Shown: piece after piece, positions 6,503 through 36,444 of the stretch
Layout: every line of letters starts with the position of its first letter
How positions within the stretch are numbered: position 1 is the first letter of the stretch
The notes under the pieces: model-generated
Databases searched by the model: none
What the model saw: only the letters and a program-made list of their open reading frames with translations
What the model was told of the DNA's origin: nothing
Translations under genes and position numbers: made by a program
Source of the DNA: Candidatus Thorarchaeota archaeon
GTDB lineage: Archaea; Asgardarchaeota; Thorarchaeia; Thorarchaeales; Thorarchaeaceae
Direction: 5' to 3'
Assembly: GCA_003345595.1 (NCBI GenBank)
Contig: PRDI01000066.1
Location: 1 to 39,655, forward strand
DNA length: 39,655 nt

Positions 6503-7318
6503 ATGGTGCGGCGATGCGAGTATTGCGACTCGCCAGTACCAGCAGATGCCACGGTCTGTCCTGTGTGCAGACAGGTCCTAGCCGAAGAAACCCTCGAAAG
6601 GGTTCTACCCATGCTAAAGAGACCTGGAGCACCCGAGGTCCGTGCATTGAGTGTCGGAGAAAGGCTGTGGGGTGTGATTAGACAACCTGCAGCGACTTAT
6701 CGTGACATCGGCCAGCGACCTGATGGAGCAGGGCCTTTCCTGATCGTACTGATGAACGCTCTGGTTCTTGCTGGCTTCTTCCTGGTTGTATCCTCGAAAT
6801 TCGCAGCGACAGTCGTCCTGAATCAGACAGCCGGTACCACTGCCATCGTGTCCGTCTTGGACACACAAGATGCCGGGCTCTACTACTTGACGGCTTTGGC
6901 TAGCATAGTGCCGAACATCATGCTCGGCTTTGTGTACCTACTGGTTGGAACTGCGTTTGCACACATAGCGTTCAAGATTACCGGGGGTTCCGGACGCGCA
7001 AGCAAGACCCTCGCTATCGTGGGCTACAGTATGATTCCCGTACTCATAATGCGACTAGTGGCACTAGTGGTGGTGTTTGCTGTCTTGCCCACTCACCTCG
7101 TTGACGACTTGGGCCTGTGGCCCAGCATAATCCAATCGATATACGATGCTGACGTGTGGCTAATCATAGACTATATGACGACCGCTGCATTTGTCTGGGT
7201 CGGCTTCCTCCTCATATTCGGCATCAGAGAAGCACACGACACGTCGACTGTGTGGGCATTTGTTGTTTCATCGGCATGTATGATAGTCTTGGTATGGACG
7301 TTCTGGCAAGCTCACTAA
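6503..7318 (+). CDS. Zn-ribbon + Yip1 domain membrane protein
   Basis: N-terminal CEYC...CPVC; LWGVIRQPAATYRDI, KITGGSG...TLAIVGYSMIP and GIREAH.S are Yip1 hallmarks; 5 TM segments. Confidence 0.8.
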   Translation: MVRRCEYCDSPVPADATVCPVCRQVLAEETLERVLPMLKRPGAPEVRALSVGERLWGVIRQPAATYRDIGQRPDGAGPFLIVLMNALVLAGFFLVVSSKFAATVVLNQTAGTTAIVSVLDTQDAGLYYLTALASIVPNIMLGFVYLLVGTAFAHIAFKITGGSGRASKTLAIVGYSMIPVLIMRLVALVVVFAVLPTHLVDDLGLWPSIIQSIYDADVWLIIDYMTTAAFVWVGFLLIFGIREAHDTSTVWAFVVSSACMIVLVWTFWQAH

Positions 7319-17974: not shown

Positions 17975-19543
17975 TTGAACGAAGATCCCTCAGTTCATGC
18001 ATGTCAAGTGTGCGGTAGCAATCGAGCCACTCATCTCTGTGAGGACTGCGGAGAGATACTGTGTCTGGACTGTATGGAAACGAAATCCAGCGTGCACTAT
18101 GTGTGCAGCAATTGCCATCATGCGCTAGGGACACCGCCGCCGGGGGAGAAGTTCGAGAGATGCCCAGAATGTGACTCGAAGGAGCTGAGTCTTGGCAAAC
18201 GCCTAGAAGAGATCTGTCCAAGATGTCACTCCTCGCGTACAGCTCCAATCGAGGAGAAGAGAAGAGCTCTAGCACAGGACATGCGTCGTGCAATCATGAG
18301 TATTCAGTACGGCTACATGAGGCTGAGAGACTTTACGAACAGGCTCACATCAGCGAAGAGGCTTCTGGTATCTCTTAGGATGGCCAACTTCCTTCACTAC
18401 CGATGGTTGGAAGACAAGATCGAGGACATACAGTCCGAGCTTCCGGCAATCAAGAACAGAGTTGCCAATCAGGCAGAGATCATTGCAAGACAGATGACGG
18501 CCGAAACCAAGGGCTTCCTCGACTACAACACATGGTCAGCGGCTCAGTTTCCCTTTATAGGAGGAGTGACCAACCGCATAACAGAACTTGGCAATCAGTA
18601 CAGGCGCAATGTCGATGAGGCTCTTGAGAGTGTACGACTTACAATCTCAGATTTGGAACAGCAACTGGATGGACTGGACTACTACAAGAAGCAGTTTGCA
18701 GGTTTCTACGACACTGCGGAGCTGTCGGTCAACGAACTGCCAGTCTGTGCTCTGCCTGAGATAAGGATTGCAGGCAGTGACTTCCTCAAGAATGACAAGG
18801 CTCTGGGCACGCTCTACATAACAAACAGGAGACTCATCTTCATTGCTGAAACAGGTCGGTTACGCAAGAAGACTGACATCATATTCGATTTCCCTCTCAT
18901 GTATCTGAAAAGCATCGAAGGTGACGGTCGTCTGAGGAAGAGGGTTGTCCTGAAGATGAAGCAGGGCGAAGTCAAGCTCTCTTGTAACGAGCAGACGGAG
19001 AAGGTGCTGCCAGACTATGTCGAAATCGCCAGGAAGTTCGACAAATACATGCAGTCGGATCTCCAGAGAACGAGGAAGCTCGGTCAATCAGATATCCCCG
19101 TCAGTGATGTTAGACTCAAGATCGAGGAGCTTGTGTACTCGCTCATCTCCTCAGGCGCCGCCGTAGAGCAAGACAGAGAAACGGGGAGGGCATCTGGTGC
19201 ATATCCGAGACATGTAGGGCCGTATGCGGCCGGCGCCCAGTTCCGGCGTGATTTCCGGCAGAGCAGCAGCCCCTACCCGCGTGACCGACTGAGAAGGGAC
19301 ATAGAAGGCATGTTTGAGAACCGAGAACAGCCACACCGACCAGATGGTTCAAGCAGTTACATGTCCAGCAGTGACACGTTGGTCATCGATGATGCAATAA
19401 AGGACACAGTGCATCTCTTCAGGAGCGGGCAACTGGTGCCCGAGGACTTCATCAGGCGATACAAGGGGCTCATGCGTGACTCATACGACACTAGAAGAAG
19501 ACTGGAGTCTGTTTCAAGATATGCGCAGAGTGTAGAGCGGTGA
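17975..19543 (+). CDS. ESCRT-I Vps23/TSG101-like steadiness-box protein with B-box/Zn fingers, coiled coil and GRAM/PH domain
   Basis: Six CxxC pairs in aa 9-85; long helical region; GTLYITNRRLIF..FDFPL..LKSIE (GRAM/GLUE-like). The C-terminal IDDAIKDTVHLFRSGQLVPEDFIRRYKGLMRDSY.TR matches the steadiness box. Adjacent to ESCRT-III. Confidence 0.72.
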   Translation: MNEDPSVHACQVCGSNRATHLCEDCGEILCLDCMETKSSVHYVCSNCHHALGTPPPGEKFERCPECDSKELSLGKRLEEICPRCHSSRTAPIEEKRRALAQDMRRAIMSIQYGYMRLRDFTNRLTSAKRLLVSLRMANFLHYRWLEDKIEDIQSELPAIKNRVANQAEIIARQMTAETKGFLDYNTWSAAQFPFIGGVTNRITELGNQYRRNVDEALESVRLTISDLEQQLDGLDYYKKQFAGFYDTAELSVNELPVCALPEIRIAGSDFLKNDKALGTLYITNRRLIFIAETGRLRKKTDIIFDFPLMYLKSIEGDGRLRKRVVLKMKQGEVKLSCNEQTEKVLPDYVEIARKFDKYMQSDLQRTRKLGQSDIPVSDVRLKIEELVYSLISSGAAVEQDRETGRASGAYPRHVGPYAAGAQFRRDFRQSSSPYPRDRLRRDIEGMFENREQPHRPDGSSSYMSSSDTLVIDDAIKDTVHLFRSGQLVPEDFIRRYKGLMRDSYDTRRRLESVSRYAQSVER

Positions 19544-20167
19544 TCAGACGCCCAGCTCTTTCTCAAGCGACTTGATGGCTTCTTCGAGCTCCTCGGCTTC
19601 TGTCACTGGTCTTGTACCCGAAGGCGCGCCAACAACCCCTGCGGCCGCATCTATCTCCTCCATGGCGGCTGCCATGTCTTCCGAGGTCACTTGGCTCTCT
19701 TTTGTGGAAACAAGAGCCTCTTCTGATATTCCGCTCTCAATTTCGAACTCTTCAAGCCTGCGAGTGATCTCGTCCAGATTCTGGATGACCTTTGTCGAGT
19801 CTGTTGCGTCGCTCAACATGCCAAGTATCTTCGCAACCTGTTCGACTGCTAATCCGGTCTTGGCGGTAGCTTGGGCCCGAGTGATGTGAGCAAGCACCCT
19901 CAAGAGATGAAGCCGTGAACGGTCAACTGACAGAGCGAATCTCCTAAAGCGAATCATCTCCGCCGCGTAGGTCCTGTATGCGTCTGTTTGGCCCTCCTTG
20001 CGGGCACGAACCGCTCGCGCCTTAGTATCGCGCTCCTCTTTCTCAAGCCTGTTCCTTTCGCGCTCAAGCTGCTTGGTCAGTATTCTGAGCTGGGATGTGA
20101 CCTCTGTAATGTCGGGTTTCCTACGACCCCAAGACATGGCTTTCTTGATTGTACCCAATGAGCTCAC
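19544..20167 (-). CDS. ESCRT-III subunit, Vps2/24/46 (CHMP1-3) class, Snf7 family
   Basis: Basic N-terminal hairpin (LRILTKQLERERNRLEKEE..KARAVRA), YAAEMIRFRR.AL..RSRLHL resembling Did2/CHMP1, acidic C-terminal half, MIM1-like ELEEAIKSLEKEL; divergent from Vps4. Confidence 0.88.
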   Translation of the reverse strand: MSSLGTIKKAMSWGRRKPDITEVTSQLRILTKQLERERNRLEKEERDTKARAVRARKEGQTDAYRTYAAEMIRFRRFALSVDRSRLHLLRVLAHITRAQATAKTGLAVEQVAKILGMLSDATDSTKVIQNLDEITRRLEEFEIESGISEEALVSTKESQVTSEDMAAAMEEIDAAAGVVGAPSGTRPVTEAEELEEAIKSLEKELGV

Positions 20168-20311: not shown

Positions 20312-21556
20312 ATGGCATTCGAACGCGAAATGTCAGGATCAGATGCTGACCGGCTGGACTTGGGCTTAAGGGCTCTCCTAGACAAGGCCATTGACCTTGA
20401 TTATAGAGGGATGAAGAAAGAGGCCTGCCAATACTATCTCAAGGCCAGCAAGATCCTCATCAAACTCTCCAATTCGACCTCATTGCCATCACTCCGCAAG
20501 CACTACTTCGACAGGGCTCAGGAGTGTGTGGATCGTGTGAAGCGCATCTCTGGAGCAAAGGGAGTCGCCGGCCCACCAGACAGCCTCAGAAGACTGGTGA
20601 CACAACCAGGAGAAAAGATCCAGAAGACTGCGACACGATCGGCATCAGAGGAAACAGAGGAAATCGACGAGGACACAAAGAGGCTTCGTGAGATGATTGC
20701 GGACACCATCATAGCTGAGCGGCCGGACGTAAAGATGTCAGAAGTGGCAGGACTAGAGGAGGCAAAGCAGGCAATCCAAGAGGCTGTAGTCGCCCCGATG
20801 AAACACCCGGAGCTGTTCAAGGGAAAGGCAAGACAGCCATGGAGAGGAATCCTGTTTTATGGACCAGCGGGCTGCGGCAAGACTCTCATAGCAAAAGCTG
20901 TTGCTTCGGAGGTGAACGCGACCTTCTTTAACGTGTCAGCAGGAAACATAGTGAGCAAGTGGTTGGGAGAGTCTGAGAAGCTTGTCATGACACTGTTTGA
21001 TATGGCGAGGAAGAACCAGCCGGCAATCATCTTCGTCGATGAACTTGACTCAGTCGGTGTTTCCAGATCCGATCACGATGTTGGAGGCGAGCGGAGGCTC
21101 AAGACTCAGCTGCTGACTGAGCTTCAAGGAGTGGCCAGCAACCCAAAGGAACGAGTCACAGTCATCGGTGCCACCAACCTACCATGGCAACTTGATTTTG
21201 CCCTGAGGTCTAGGTTTGAGAAGAGAATCCATATTCCCCTTCCTGGAAAGACATCACGACGAACGATGTTTGAGCTACATATGGAGGATGTAGAGGTTTC
21301 ACACGACGTTGACTTCGATGAACTTGCGGACCTGACAGAGGGCTATAGTGGTCGGGACATCAGCGTTGTGTGCAGGGAAGCTGCCATGGAGCCTATAAGA
21401 GATCTCCAGAGTACTGGAGAAATGGACCGCGATGGCCCGATTGAAAACATCCGACCTGTTTCGAGGCAGGATTTCCTCCAAGCCATTGACAGCATTGGAC
21501 CCGGTACTTCTCCCGAGGACGTGAAGAAGTATGTCGATTGGGCGGAGGCAACATAG
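20312..21556 (+). CDS. vps4: Vps4 AAA+ ATPase with N-terminal MIT domain
   Basis: MIT (KAIDLD..G.KKEACQYYLKA), ERPDVK..EVAGLEEAK, PWRGILFYGPAGCGKT, pore loop SKWLGESEK, IFVDELDS, RRLKTQLL, GATNLPWQLD, TEGYSGRDI. Confidence 0.95.
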   Translation: MAFEREMSGSDADRLDLGLRALLDKAIDLDYRGMKKEACQYYLKASKILIKLSNSTSLPSLRKHYFDRAQECVDRVKRISGAKGVAGPPDSLRRLVTQPGEKIQKTATRSASEETEEIDEDTKRLREMIADTIIAERPDVKMSEVAGLEEAKQAIQEAVVAPMKHPELFKGKARQPWRGILFYGPAGCGKTLIAKAVASEVNATFFNVSAGNIVSKWLGESEKLVMTLFDMARKNQPAIIFVDELDSVGVSRSDHDVGGERRLKTQLLTELQGVASNPKERVTVIGATNLPWQLDFALRSRFEKRIHIPLPGKTSRRTMFELHMEDVEVSHDVDFDELADLTEGYSGRDISVVCREAAMEPIRDLQSTGEMDRDGPIENIRPVSRQDFLQAIDSIGPGTSPEDVKKYVDWAEAT

Positions 21557-21559
21557 GCT

Positions 21560-22279
21560 GTGAGTGTGAAGGAACGACGAAGGCAGAAGGAGCGATCCAA
21601 GCCCCGAAGTGAGTCCAAGCATCAGGAGGGTGCGGTGGACACTGAGGCCAGCATCGAAAGCTTCGTCACTTCCGAGCAAGTCGAATCCCCTCTCGAAACT
21701 CCGGAAACAACTCAAGTTGCCGAGCCCGAACCGCAGGTTTCGGAGCCCGTCACTGAGGAGGCTCTCGTGCCACAGGTACTTCTGCCGCGGTGGGGTGACA
21801 ACAAAGAGTCAGAATGGATGTACCAGATTCCTCCCAGAGATGAGGACAGAGATATGTGGATGAATGAGTGGGCCGACTTCGTGATCCAGTGGACGCAGTC
21901 AAAAGGCCTTCATGTCCTCTCTGTTTCAGCCTTCATCAAGGAACCACCTTTCAGAGACATGCTTGGAAAGGTAGACGCTTTCAGACTGATTGGAAACGCA
22001 TTGGTCGACAAGGGAGTTGCAGAATGGCTTGATGACAAGAAGCGCCAACTCCGAGTCTACTGGAGACCCCTTGAGGAATGGGCCGATTTGGTATATGGGT
22101 GGGCCATTGAAACGGGAAACCTGCACCTAGATGTCAAATCCATAATCATACAGGAAGCTAGTAGGGAGTTTGCCAGTCTTCCTGAGAGAGACTTGCATCA
22201 AGTAATGGAGATGCTTGTAGACAGAAAAGTGGCAGAGTGGGTGGATAGGAAGAGGGGGGCAATACTAATCCGAGTGTGA
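21560..22279 (+). CDS. vps25: ESCRT-II subunit Vps25-like
   Basis: W.DFVIQW, PPF, LVDKGVAEWLD...VYWRPLEEWADLVYGWA.ETG is the Vps25 tandem winged-helix signature; 3 bp downstream of vps4. Confidence 0.88.
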   Translation: MSVKERRRQKERSKPRSESKHQEGAVDTEASIESFVTSEQVESPLETPETTQVAEPEPQVSEPVTEEALVPQVLLPRWGDNKESEWMYQIPPRDEDRDMWMNEWADFVIQWTQSKGLHVLSVSAFIKEPPFRDMLGKVDAFRLIGNALVDKGVAEWLDDKKRQLRVYWRPLEEWADLVYGWAIETGNLHLDVKSIIIQEASREFASLPERDLHQVMEMLVDRKVAEWVDRKRGAILIRV

Positions 22280-22284
22280 TTCCC

Positions 22285-23022
22285 CTATACCGAGCCGTTC
22301 CTGCCTCGAAGTCCTGGAAAGTAATACCGTCCCCCCGTGGAGAAACGGATGTCGGCGACAGCCATGCCTGAGTCGACCAGGCTAGACAGGACTTGGCGCG
22401 CGTGATCTTCAGACCACTTCAGCTGCATCATGAGTTCCTCTATAGAAACATGCCCTTTTGTAGCGGCTATGTTGATGACATCAGCCTGGTCTCTCCGCAG
22501 CTCAAGTGGACGCAGCTCGACGACCTTTACGCCGCCCCTTAGTGTTCTGATGCCAGGGATGAGACCGTGTTCTGCGACGCGGTTCACAGCCTCGATCACG
22601 TCATTGTAGCTCACAGATTTGAGTTCTGGGATAAGGCGCACTACCTCCACTATGAGTTCTGCCAGTCCCATGAGGCCCTTAGATGCGTTTGCCGTAGCAA
22701 CATCGAGCACGGCCAATCCGATGTGGTCATAGTATTCCTCGGTGGTCATGCCCTCGATTGAGGCCATTGAGCTCTTGCCGTGAAGACCCAACAGGACTGA
22801 TGCATCCGGAAATGACTCAAGCACCCTCTCTTGGTCGATGAAATTCACAGGATCTATGCCCATGTGTCGAAGGTCTTCGATACAGTCCTTGACCTCCGCA
22901 AGAAGCGCATCTGATTCCCTCTGAAATGACCGTACATCCACGGTCCCCATGTCGTACATCTTCTTGAGCTGATCCAGCGTCGCAATCGACGCCCATAGCT
23001 CGGATTGGAGTCGTTCACTCAT
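22285..23022 (-). CDS. ESCRT-II Vps22/36 (EAP30) protein with N-terminal Vps28-like headpiece
   Basis: EAP30 motifs: YYDHIGLAVL..GLMGLAEL, VSYNDV.EAV, PLEL..DQ..V, L.WS...A...L..LV..G....D....YYFP. N-terminal ELWASIATLDQLKKMY resembles Vps28. Confidence 0.85.
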   Translation of the reverse strand: MSERLQSELWASIATLDQLKKMYDMGTVDVRSFQRESDALLAEVKDCIEDLRHMGIDPVNFIDQERVLESFPDASVLLGLHGKSSMASIEGMTTEEYYDHIGLAVLDVATANASKGLMGLAELIVEVVRLIPELKSVSYNDVIEAVNRVAEHGLIPGIRTLRGGVKVVELRPLELRRDQADVINIAATKGHVSIEELMMQLKWSEDHARQVLSSLVDSGMAVADIRFSTGGRYYFPGLRGRNGSV

Positions 23023-35229: not shown

Positions 35230-36444
35230 TTGAGTAGCAGGAGAAAGAGAATCGTCTTTGACCAGACACAGAACGAGAGAGGACGTCTTGAAACTACCTA
35301 CTCTCAGCTTGGCCAGCTCCTCACAGACCACGACTTCAGTGTCGAACCGTACACTGATTACATGATTATGACCAAGGGTCTCGAGGGTGTGAGCGTTTTT
35401 GTACTGGCATGCCCCAACAGCTCTAAGCTGAGACCAGCCGAGGCCGATGCTCTAAGAAAGTTCGTGCAGGACGGCGGTGGTCTCATGCTCCTGTCACTAT
35501 CAGGTGGTGATAGAGGACTCATGAACAACATGAGTATGCTCTCAAAGAACTTCGGCGTGGAGTTTGATAACACGGCTGTCAAGGACGAGAGACACAATGC
35601 AGGGCTTCCCACGTTGCCCATCATTACGGGACTGGTGCCGCACCCCATCAGTGAGGACGTCAGTGACGTCGTTCTTCCATCGCCGTGCAGCTTGAGACTG
35701 TCCGGAAAGGCAGTCGCAGTTGCCATCACCTCACAGGCGGCAGACCCGGCCAGTCAGCCCGTCATAGCGGCAGTGCAGTATGAAAAGGGCAGGGTGGTCT
35801 GCGTGGGAAGCTATGAGGTGTTCCGGAAAGGTGGCGGCCTCAAGAATGAGGGCAACGTTAGGTTTGCTGCCAACTGTTTCAGATGGCTCAGTGGGGATGT
35901 ACAACTGACCAAGCCTAGCGAGGTCGTCGCCGCACAGGCAAAGGCCGAGGAATCTAGGAGCAGACCCGGTGAAACAGCTGAGTCAGTGACATCTTCGGAA
36001 ACAGAGAAGACTCTTCGCAGACTCATCAATACAGTCTTTGACCTCCAGAAGGATATTGGACGTGCGACTGAAGGTATTAGTAGGGTGGAGAAGAACATCG
36101 AAACTCTAAGATCCCAGTTTCAGGACTTCGCGGACAAGATTCAACAGCAGCTCGGTGTTATGGTGCCTACGGGACAGTTCAGGACAGAAGATGAGAACAG
36201 GGCCGCAGAAGTTGAGGCCGATGTGACTTCCCTAGAGAAAGAGCTTAGATCTGTGCAGCAGCTCCGTGATCATATTGAACAGAGACACTCGTCAGGTGCC
36301 ATGACGAAGGAAGCCTATCTTGAACAGACACAGAAGCTGGACGAGCGAGTCGTAAACCTGAACAAGAGACTCGCCGAAAAACGAGAGGAACTGAAACGGC
36401 TTAACGCCCAGCCAGAGAGCACTGTTGCTGGACAAGGACAGTGA
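35230..36444 (+). CDS. GIFT (IFT52/GldG-like, GATase-I fold) domain protein with coiled-coil C-terminus
   Basis: IVFDQTQNE, FVLACP..KL..AE..AL.KFV..GGGL.LL..SGG, GRVVCVGS, N..F..N.FRWL; two long heptad segments follow. Confidence 0.75.
   Translation: MSSRRKRIVFDQTQNERGRLETTYSQLGQLLTDHDFSVEPYTDYMIMTKGLEGVSVFVLACPNSSKLRPAEADALRKFVQDGGGLMLLSLSGGDRGLMNNMSMLSKNFGVEFDNTAVKDERHNAGLPTLPIITGLVPHPISEDVSDVVLPSPCSLRLSGKAVAVAITSQAADPASQPVIAAVQYEKGRVVCVGSYEVFRKGGGLKNEGNVRFAANCFRWLSGDVQLTKPSEVVAAQAKAEESRSRPGETAESVTSSETEKTLRRLINTVFDLQKDIGRATEGISRVEKNIETLRSQFQDFADKIQQQLGVMVPTGQFRTEDENRAAEVEADVTSLEKELRSVQQLRDHIEQRHSSGAMTKEAYLEQTQKLDERVVNLNKRLAEKREELKRLNAQPESTVAGQGQ

Follow-up and report, generated by a model that had tools for sequence, protein, structure and literature searches.

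Gene Organization of the Locus

The analyzed window, a 39,655-nucleotide stretch of DNA from a Thorarchaeota archaeon, belongs to an assembly of the metagenome type that is fragmented into 129 contigs and 83% complete. It carries a compact ESCRT cluster in which the gene for a Vps28N-Vps22 fusion protein is encoded together with vps25, vps4, an ESCRT-III gene and the gene for a Zn-ribbon/PH/steadiness-box (SB) protein (Table 1). The fusion gene starts with an ATG codon at 23022 and ends with a stop codon at 22285-22287; its frame is intact, with no internal stop codon or frameshift. An earlier note on this DNA, made from the sequence letters, had assigned residues 1-80 to positions 22783-23022, which is borne out by the ORF coordinates, and the string quoted there, SELWASIATLDQLKK..., corresponds to residues 7-45 of the 245-aa product. 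The synteny of the fusion gene and the SB-protein gene is kept in three named Thorarchaeota assemblies, where the two locus tags are 4-5 apart.

Table 1. Coordinates of the fusion gene, its domains and the neighboring ESCRT genes (window positions).
Feature	Position	Strand	Evidence or remark
Vps28N-Vps22 fusion protein, whole gene	22285..23022	-	245 aa
Vps28 N-terminal (headpiece) domain, residues 1-80	22783..23022	-	Models, fold matches, sequence/profile homology
Variable linker at the junction, residues 81-92	22747..22782	-	pLDDT <50 at residues 82-89; poorly conserved columns
First winged helix of the EAP30/Vps22 core, residues 93-170	22513..22746	-	Pfam, PDB matches, AlphaFold model
Second winged helix of the EAP30/Vps22 core, residues 171-238	22309..22512	-	Pfam, PDB matches, AlphaFold model
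Vps25 (ESCRT-II), convergent with the fusion gene	21560..22279	+	Pfam ESCRT-II PF05871, 56.6 bits
Vps4 AAA ATPase with MIT domain	20312..21556	+	Pfam AAA, AAA_lid_3, Vps4_C, MIT
ESCRT-III (Snf7 family)	19544..20167	-	Pfam Snf7, 38.7 bits
Zn-ribbons/coiled coil/PH-GRAM-like/C-terminal steadiness-box (SB) protein, 522 aa	17975..19543	+	Predicted Vps28N partner
Steadiness-box hairpin of the Zn-ribbon/PH/SB protein, about aa 462-515	19358-19519	+	

The public record of the Zn-ribbon/PH/SB protein (17975-19543, plus strand) comprises 489 aa and starts at M34, a position that falls inside the first CxxC...CxxC zinc ribbon. Since the ribbon is cut by this start, an open frame extends back to a TTG codon at 17975 and a close homologue has 522 aa, the public gene call is probably truncated at the N-terminus. 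Vps25 (21560-22279, plus strand) has an acidic, proline-rich N-terminal extension of ~85 residues ahead of its winged helices, with the Pfam ESCRT-II match beginning at residue 88. The same window also encodes a Yip1-domain membrane protein (6503-7318, plus strand; Pfam, 78 bits) and an IFT52 GIFT-like domain protein (35230-36444, plus strand; 57 bits), both members of families that have trafficking links in eukaryotes.

Residues 1-80 Form a Vps28 N-Terminal Domain

According to the structural models (pLDDT of about 80-92), residues 1-80 comprise a helical hairpin (helices 2-24 and 30-53) followed by short helices at 58-64, 67-70 and 72-78. Nine positions of the hairpin region (A11, I13, A14, T15, L16, D17, Q18, K20 and G26) were invariant among 21 orthologues. 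Pfam VPS28 (PF03997) stayed below threshold both on the single protein and on residues 1-90 (13.3 bits for the single sequence, E = 0.07, cut-off 24.5); profiles were therefore needed, and one was built from the N-terminal 92 aa of the 21 orthologues.

Searched against the PDB, this N-domain profile ranked yeast Vps28-N chains first among natural matches (E about 0.1), and Vps22 chains aligned with it only from residue ~90. Against 1.84 billion representative proteins, it yielded 53 matches at E ≤ 0.001, which beyond the Thorarchaeota-type proteins were mainly proteins of 200-225 aa, plus UEV-VPS28 fusions. Full-length Pfam VPS28 accounted for 16 of the 17 matches tested. These independently Pfam-called VPS28 proteins, one of them from Odinarchaeia, were recovered at whole-library E-values of 1e-12 to 1e-4 and themselves matched the solved eukaryotic Vps28 N- and C-domains. 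Profile-profile comparison of the N-domain with 17 VPS28 proteins (hhalign) gave a probability of 99.0% (84 columns, 30% identity) and an E-value of 8.8e-18, which is somewhat flattered because the VPS28 set was chosen by its match to the N-domain profile; the whole-library E-values and the Pfam calls are unaffected.

Structural comparison was carried out with an AlphaFold model of residues 1-92 (pLDDT 81). All ten top Foldseek matches were Vps28-N (TM 0.66-0.74, rmsd 2.5-3.0 Å, 81-83 columns). Exhaustive structure alignment superposed the model on human VPS28 (6vme_E) with a Z-score of 11.2 (rmsd 2.2 Å, 78 residues) and on yeast Vps28 (2caz_E) with a Z-score of 8.8, while generic hairpins (among them the Vps23 steadiness box and CdvA) did not exceed 8.0. 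As the match spans the hairpin together with all three short helices behind it, it corresponds to the complete Vps28 N-domain, not just to a hairpin of the steadiness-box type. The resemblance of residues 1-80 to VPS28, put forward in the earlier note, was thus confirmed by profile and by fold: this segment is the Vps28 N-terminal domain.

The C-Terminal Core Is Vps22 with a Different N-Terminus

The tandem EAP30 winged helices that had been expected to follow the Vps28-like part were found, with Pfam and SNF8 matches over residues 93-245. Pfam EAP30 (PF04157) scored 55.8 bits (cut-off 26.8) across residues 52-224, and human SNF8 (3cuq_A, 2zme_A) aligned with about residues 91-238 at ~30% identity. 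The match to 3cuq_A had an E-value of 8e-15 with the sequence; a profile built from 25 orthologues brought it to 7.7e-19. In the full AlphaFold model (mean pLDDT 79.7), two winged helices lie past residue 93, and the best Foldseek matches of the full-protein model were Vps22 and Vps36 of ESCRT-II (1.5e-8). Neither a GLUE/PH domain nor zinc fingers of the Vps36 type gave a Pfam match at E ≤ 10, and the N-terminus is all-helical in the model. The architecture is almost certainly Vps28N (residues 1-80), linker, first winged helix and second winged helix.

Coverage of the EAP30 profile starts at position 64 of 219 in the window protein and mostly at position 62-85 in the fusions across the order; in Asgard Vps22 proteins from outside Thorarchaeota, the profile is covered from position 1 or 2 to 218. 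At all 20 non-Thorarchaeota Asgard loci that were fetched, Vps22 has its own N-terminal region of 80-100 aa, and these ordinary N-termini showed no similarity to the N-domain profile or to VPS28 (hhalign probability 0.1-0.3%). Given this coverage gap and the unlikeness of the canonical N-termini, the Vps22/Vps36-type N-terminal helical region (EAP30 profile positions 1-63) has been replaced in the fusion protein and not simply added to.

Distribution of the Fusion among Asgard Archaea

A total of 138 homologues were found at E ≤ 0.001, and the best 120 of these shared 60-93% identity with the window protein. Of the best 120, those that bear a name belong to Thorarchaeota, except for a few under the labels Promethearchaeota or Lokiarchaeota; these 120 proteins carried the Pfam tag EAP30 only and were called 'hypothetical' or 'EAP30/Vps36 family', in line with the misannotation risk anticipated from the sequence. 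The fusion is also seen in over 130 protein clusters drawn from several sources.

In a phylum sample of 201 genomes, the fusion was present in 41 of the 44 genomes of the order, including single-contig assemblies. Of the 43 genomes sampled from the family of the window's own genome, 40 had Vps28N and EAP30 in one open frame, and the other three had neither match. The sole sampled genome of the second family of the order also encodes the fusion (42% identity). The fusion frame measures roughly 250-280 aa across the order. Altogether, 133 of the 201 Asgard genomes had a Vps28N-like match, each exactly one. Outside the order, this match fell in a Vps28 of roughly 205-235 aa or in a UEV-Vps28 of roughly 470-490 aa, and Vps22 was a separate, complete frame. 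Within this 201-genome sample, the fusion is confined to the order and is not a general Asgard trait.

One same-genus relative has a Vps28N match in a 106-aa open frame (C13:104460-104681), with a TGA codon within the match and a weak EAP30 match (E = 8e-6); the fusion gene of this relative may be broken or mis-assembled. In one large Asgard family, EAP30 was detected in 37 of 40 genomes and the Thorarchaeota Vps28N profile matched in 1 of 40, so that Vps28 of this family would be either very divergent or missing.

Two readings under which there would be no genuine Vps28-Vps22 fusion, both foreseen in the earlier note, can be weighed against these data. If residues 1-85 were ordinary Vps22 N-terminal helices, their Vps28 likeness would be a chance hairpin match, as might be suspected from the sub-threshold Pfam VPS28 score of the single sequence, from a short 'GIDP' stretch resembling residues 70-86 of yeast Vps22 and from the many middling structural matches that hairpins draw. 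However, profile-profile comparison placed the domain with VPS28, the whole-library matches were VPS28 proteins, EAP30 coverage begins only at profile position 64, and the canonical Asgard Vps22 N-terminus, taken over the 20 non-Thorarchaeota loci, resembles neither the N-domain nor VPS28. The 'GIDP' likeness itself was rejected as a sign of an ordinary N-terminus (-0.6 bits; no match to the canonical N-terminus), and we consider this reading highly improbable. The other reading, that an assembly or gene-calling error has joined separate vps28 and vps22 genes into a chimera, draws on the fragmented state of the source assembly. Against it stand the frame, which has no stop codon or frameshift, and the recurrence of the same uninterrupted frame in 41 sampled genomes and many independent data sources. 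Because this frame is shared by 40 of the 43 family genomes and by the second family, a chimera can be excluded with near certainty.

Apparent Loss of the Vps28 C-Domain and Proposed Origin of the Fusion

The vps28 and vps22 genes of Asgard archaea outside Thorarchaeota were compared for position and orientation. In a tally made by eye on the best 150 EAP30 matches of the 201-genome sample, for which the counts are approximate, about 68 of 84 non-Thorarchaeota pairs lay within 1.5 kb on one strand. For the rest, about 13 pairs were 2-3.3 kb apart, one was in opposite orientation at 5.5 kb and two were on separate contigs. At all 20 fetched loci, which were picked from the adjacent vps28-vps22 cases, a vps28 with both N and C domains lies immediately upstream of vps22 and in the same orientation. 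Unless an extra gene intervenes, the two genes are separated by a few tens of nucleotides or less, and the called frames overlapped in three loci; at one UEV-Vps28 locus, the distance to the first ATG was about 0.6 kb. At five of the 20 loci, a separate gene of 90-100 aa encoding only the Vps28 C-domain lies between the full vps28 and vps22, which fits the remark that some Asgard genomes encode this domain separately (PMC10936438).

A Vps28-C profile gave no match at E ≤ 0.01 in any of 61 genomes of the order (the window's own genome and 60 relatives), a sample in which 24 genomes are at least 90% complete and the own assembly is 83% complete. In the positive control, the same profile matched in five of five genomes (E from 1e-33 to 1e-40). 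In only 2 of the 61 genomes did Pfam VPS28 score above its cut-off, so that domain counts that recognize ESCRT-I from a complete VPS28 match will miss it in this order.

Two candidates for a hidden Vps28 were rejected. A weak PF03997 match in the own genome (C64:9734-9898) belongs to the coiled-coil tail of an unrelated ORF and has a TAG codon within the match. A coiled-coil protein of 411 aa that is conserved in Thorarchaeota (own copy at C115:19370-20599) gave weak full-length PF03997 matches of 15-26 bits, over the cut-off in one genome, and an hhalign probability of 0.3% against VPS28. This protein may be the 'BAR-SB' protein of PMC10936438, and it is a trap for domain-based ESCRT-I surveys.

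Since the vps28 gene of other Asgard archaea is complete and lies in most cases immediately upstream of an equally complete vps22, the fusion probably arose by an in-frame deletion across this gene pair, a scenario that rests on present-day gene order. The deletion, about 0.6 kb in length, would have occurred across adjacent co-directional vps28 and vps22 genes in the ancestor of the order and would have eliminated three stretches: the Vps28 C-domain, the spacer between the genes and the N-terminal helices of Vps22.

Predicted Partner of the Vps28 N-Domain

In eukaryotic ESCRT-I, as described in PMC10936438 and PMC9192718, the Vps28 N-domain packs on the steadiness box of Vps23, and the Vps28 C-domain contacts Vps36 of ESCRT-II. 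The only SB candidate in the window's own genome was the C-terminus of the neighboring Zn-ribbon/PH protein (Vps23_core, E = 0.08-0.2), of which the last ~60 residues are strongly conserved.

Complex prediction for the N-domain (residues 1-82) and the SB C-terminus (residues 433-522) gave a median of 0.63 (0.63, 0.68 and 0.61), and the best control reached 0.01. Among solved complexes, 58 of 80 attained the 0.63 mark, as did 2 of 110 mismatched pairs, a calibration that holds only roughly because the alignments were made by the analyst. As a look-alike complex has already been solved (Vps23-C:Vps28-N, 2F6M), this pass may reflect memory of that structure. The runs shared at least 57% of contacts, with a partner pLDDT of at least 64. 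The predicted interface involves residues 3-40 of the N-domain, including the invariant A11, A14 and T15, and residues 47-76 of the 90-aa partner segment, including the invariant Y64 and M68; it adjoins the invariant F60, R62, R63 and L67 (numbering of the segment 433-522).

On balance, the Zn-ribbon/PH/SB protein is the predicted binding partner of Vps28N. In the proposed arrangement, Vps28N would pack against the SB hairpin of this Zn-ribbon/coiled-coil/PH protein from the same cluster in the way that Vps28-N packs on Vps23-C. An upstream membrane/cargo module would thereby be tied covalently to Vps22-Vps25, which would recruit ESCRT-III and Vps4. The covalent ESCRT-I/ESCRT-II bridge put forward in the earlier note gains from the lack of a Vps28-C match in the 61 genomes, from the docking model and from the public names of the protein ('hypothetical' or 'EAP30/Vps36 family'), the binding itself being predicted in silico.

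Alternatively, the Vps28N-like domain could be a homodimerization module that forms an ESCRT-II stalk and stands in for the lost Vps22/Vps36-type N-terminal helices, with no link to an ESCRT-I-like partner. According to PMC9192718, Thorarchaeota Vps22 interacts with itself in the yeast two-hybrid assay, and Asgard Vps22 homodimers were proposed in place of Vps22/Vps36; the absence of the canonical N-terminal helices from the fusion protein agrees with such a role. In view of this self-interaction, the domain could dimerize instead of, or beside, bridging, and the two functions could coexist. However, the domain is specifically Vps28-N-like, with Z-scores of 11.2 and 8.8 compared to at most 8.0 for all else, and the predicted hetero-complex with the neighboring SB passes the control test. 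We consider homodimerization without a partner link rather unlikely. The whole explanation, in which Vps28N-Vps22 would have arisen by deletion and its Vps28N would dock on the SB protein, seems likely to us.

Comparison with Known ESCRT Proteins

The core fusion is already known from the 2024 literature, as follows from the text and Table S3 of PMC10936438. Makarova et al. 2024 (mBio, PMC10936438) write of the Asgard proteins of the Vps22 family that they 'are fused to an SB', and Table S3 assigns residues 1-70 of the Thorarchaeota Vps22 KXH75178.1 to PF03997, 'VPS28 protein (N-terminal domain - SB)', with an HHpred probability of 99%. In Hatano et al. 2022 (PMC9192718), orthologous ThorAB25 proteins were used in two-hybrid tests. 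The Zn-ribbon/PH/SB protein of the window is the 'ThorAB25_08990|SB' of PMC9192718 and belongs to the Znr_PH_CC_SB family of PMC10936438. The Thorarchaeota Vps22 proteins KXH75178.1 (of SMTZ1-45) and ThorAB25_09030 have the same architecture and lie in the same cluster of SB protein, ESCRT-III, Vps4, Vps25 and Vps22, and nothing essential differs from the locus described here. However, PMC10936438 states the fusion for Asgard Vps22 generally, whereas our 201-genome sample confines it to this order. Since the basic fusion has been published, the value of the present analysis lies in confirmation and comparative detail. Beyond the published statements that we found are the restriction of the fusion to the order within our sample, the replacement of the Vps22 N-terminus, the lack of a Vps28-C match in the order and the probable origin by deletion across a gene pair.

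With Vps28 (PF03997; 6VME, 2F6M, 2CAZ, 2P22), residues 1-80 share the sequence signature and the fold of the N-domain. In contrast, the C-terminal four-helix bundle of Vps28, which makes the ESCRT-II contact in eukaryotes, is missing from the fusion, and the winged helices of Vps22 are found instead. As this bundle is absent, only the N-domain counts as a VPS28 member. The tandem winged-helix core and the neighboring vps25 are held in common with Vps22/SNF8/EAP30 (PF04157; 3CUQ, 2ZME, 1U5T), whereas the N-terminal helical region of Vps22/Vps36 is absent and replaced by Vps28N. The Heimdallarchaeial UEV-Vps23-Vps28 fusion, described in PMC9192718 and also met among the proteins compared here, likewise unites in one chain ESCRT modules that eukaryotes have on different proteins. 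All parts of that fusion belong to ESCRT-I and the Vps28 C-domain is retained, whereas the Thorarchaeota fusion runs from ESCRT-I to ESCRT-II and drops this domain.

Implications for ESCRT Coupling in Thorarchaeota

To our knowledge, Asgard archaea lack Vps36; in yeast, it is the zinc finger of Vps36 that receives the Vps28 C-domain. For Odinarchaeota, the factor bridging ESCRT-I and ESCRT-II is stated to be unknown in PMC9192718. In Thorarchaeota, ESCRT-I would be coupled to ESCRT-II by a peptide bond.

Neither ubiquitin nor UEV-Vps23 is reported for Thorarchaeota in the surveys of PMC9192718 and bioRxiv 10.1101/2023.07.25.550441, and both absences fit a ubiquitin-independent, streamlined pathway. 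An order-wide rewiring can be envisaged in which the vps28-vps22 deletion put a peptide bond in place of the non-covalent ESCRT-I/II contact, the lineage lost the Vps28 C-domain and a single ubiquitin-independent ESCRT-I/II assembly operates with the SB protein; we see the chances for and against this broader proposal as evenly balanced. Thorarchaeota would be convenient for reconstituting a minimal pathway from upstream ESCRT to ESCRT-III and for testing whether ubiquitin is needed. If the proposal is true, this ubiquitin-independent assembly would be a natural minimal model of how upstream ESCRT is coupled to ESCRT-III.
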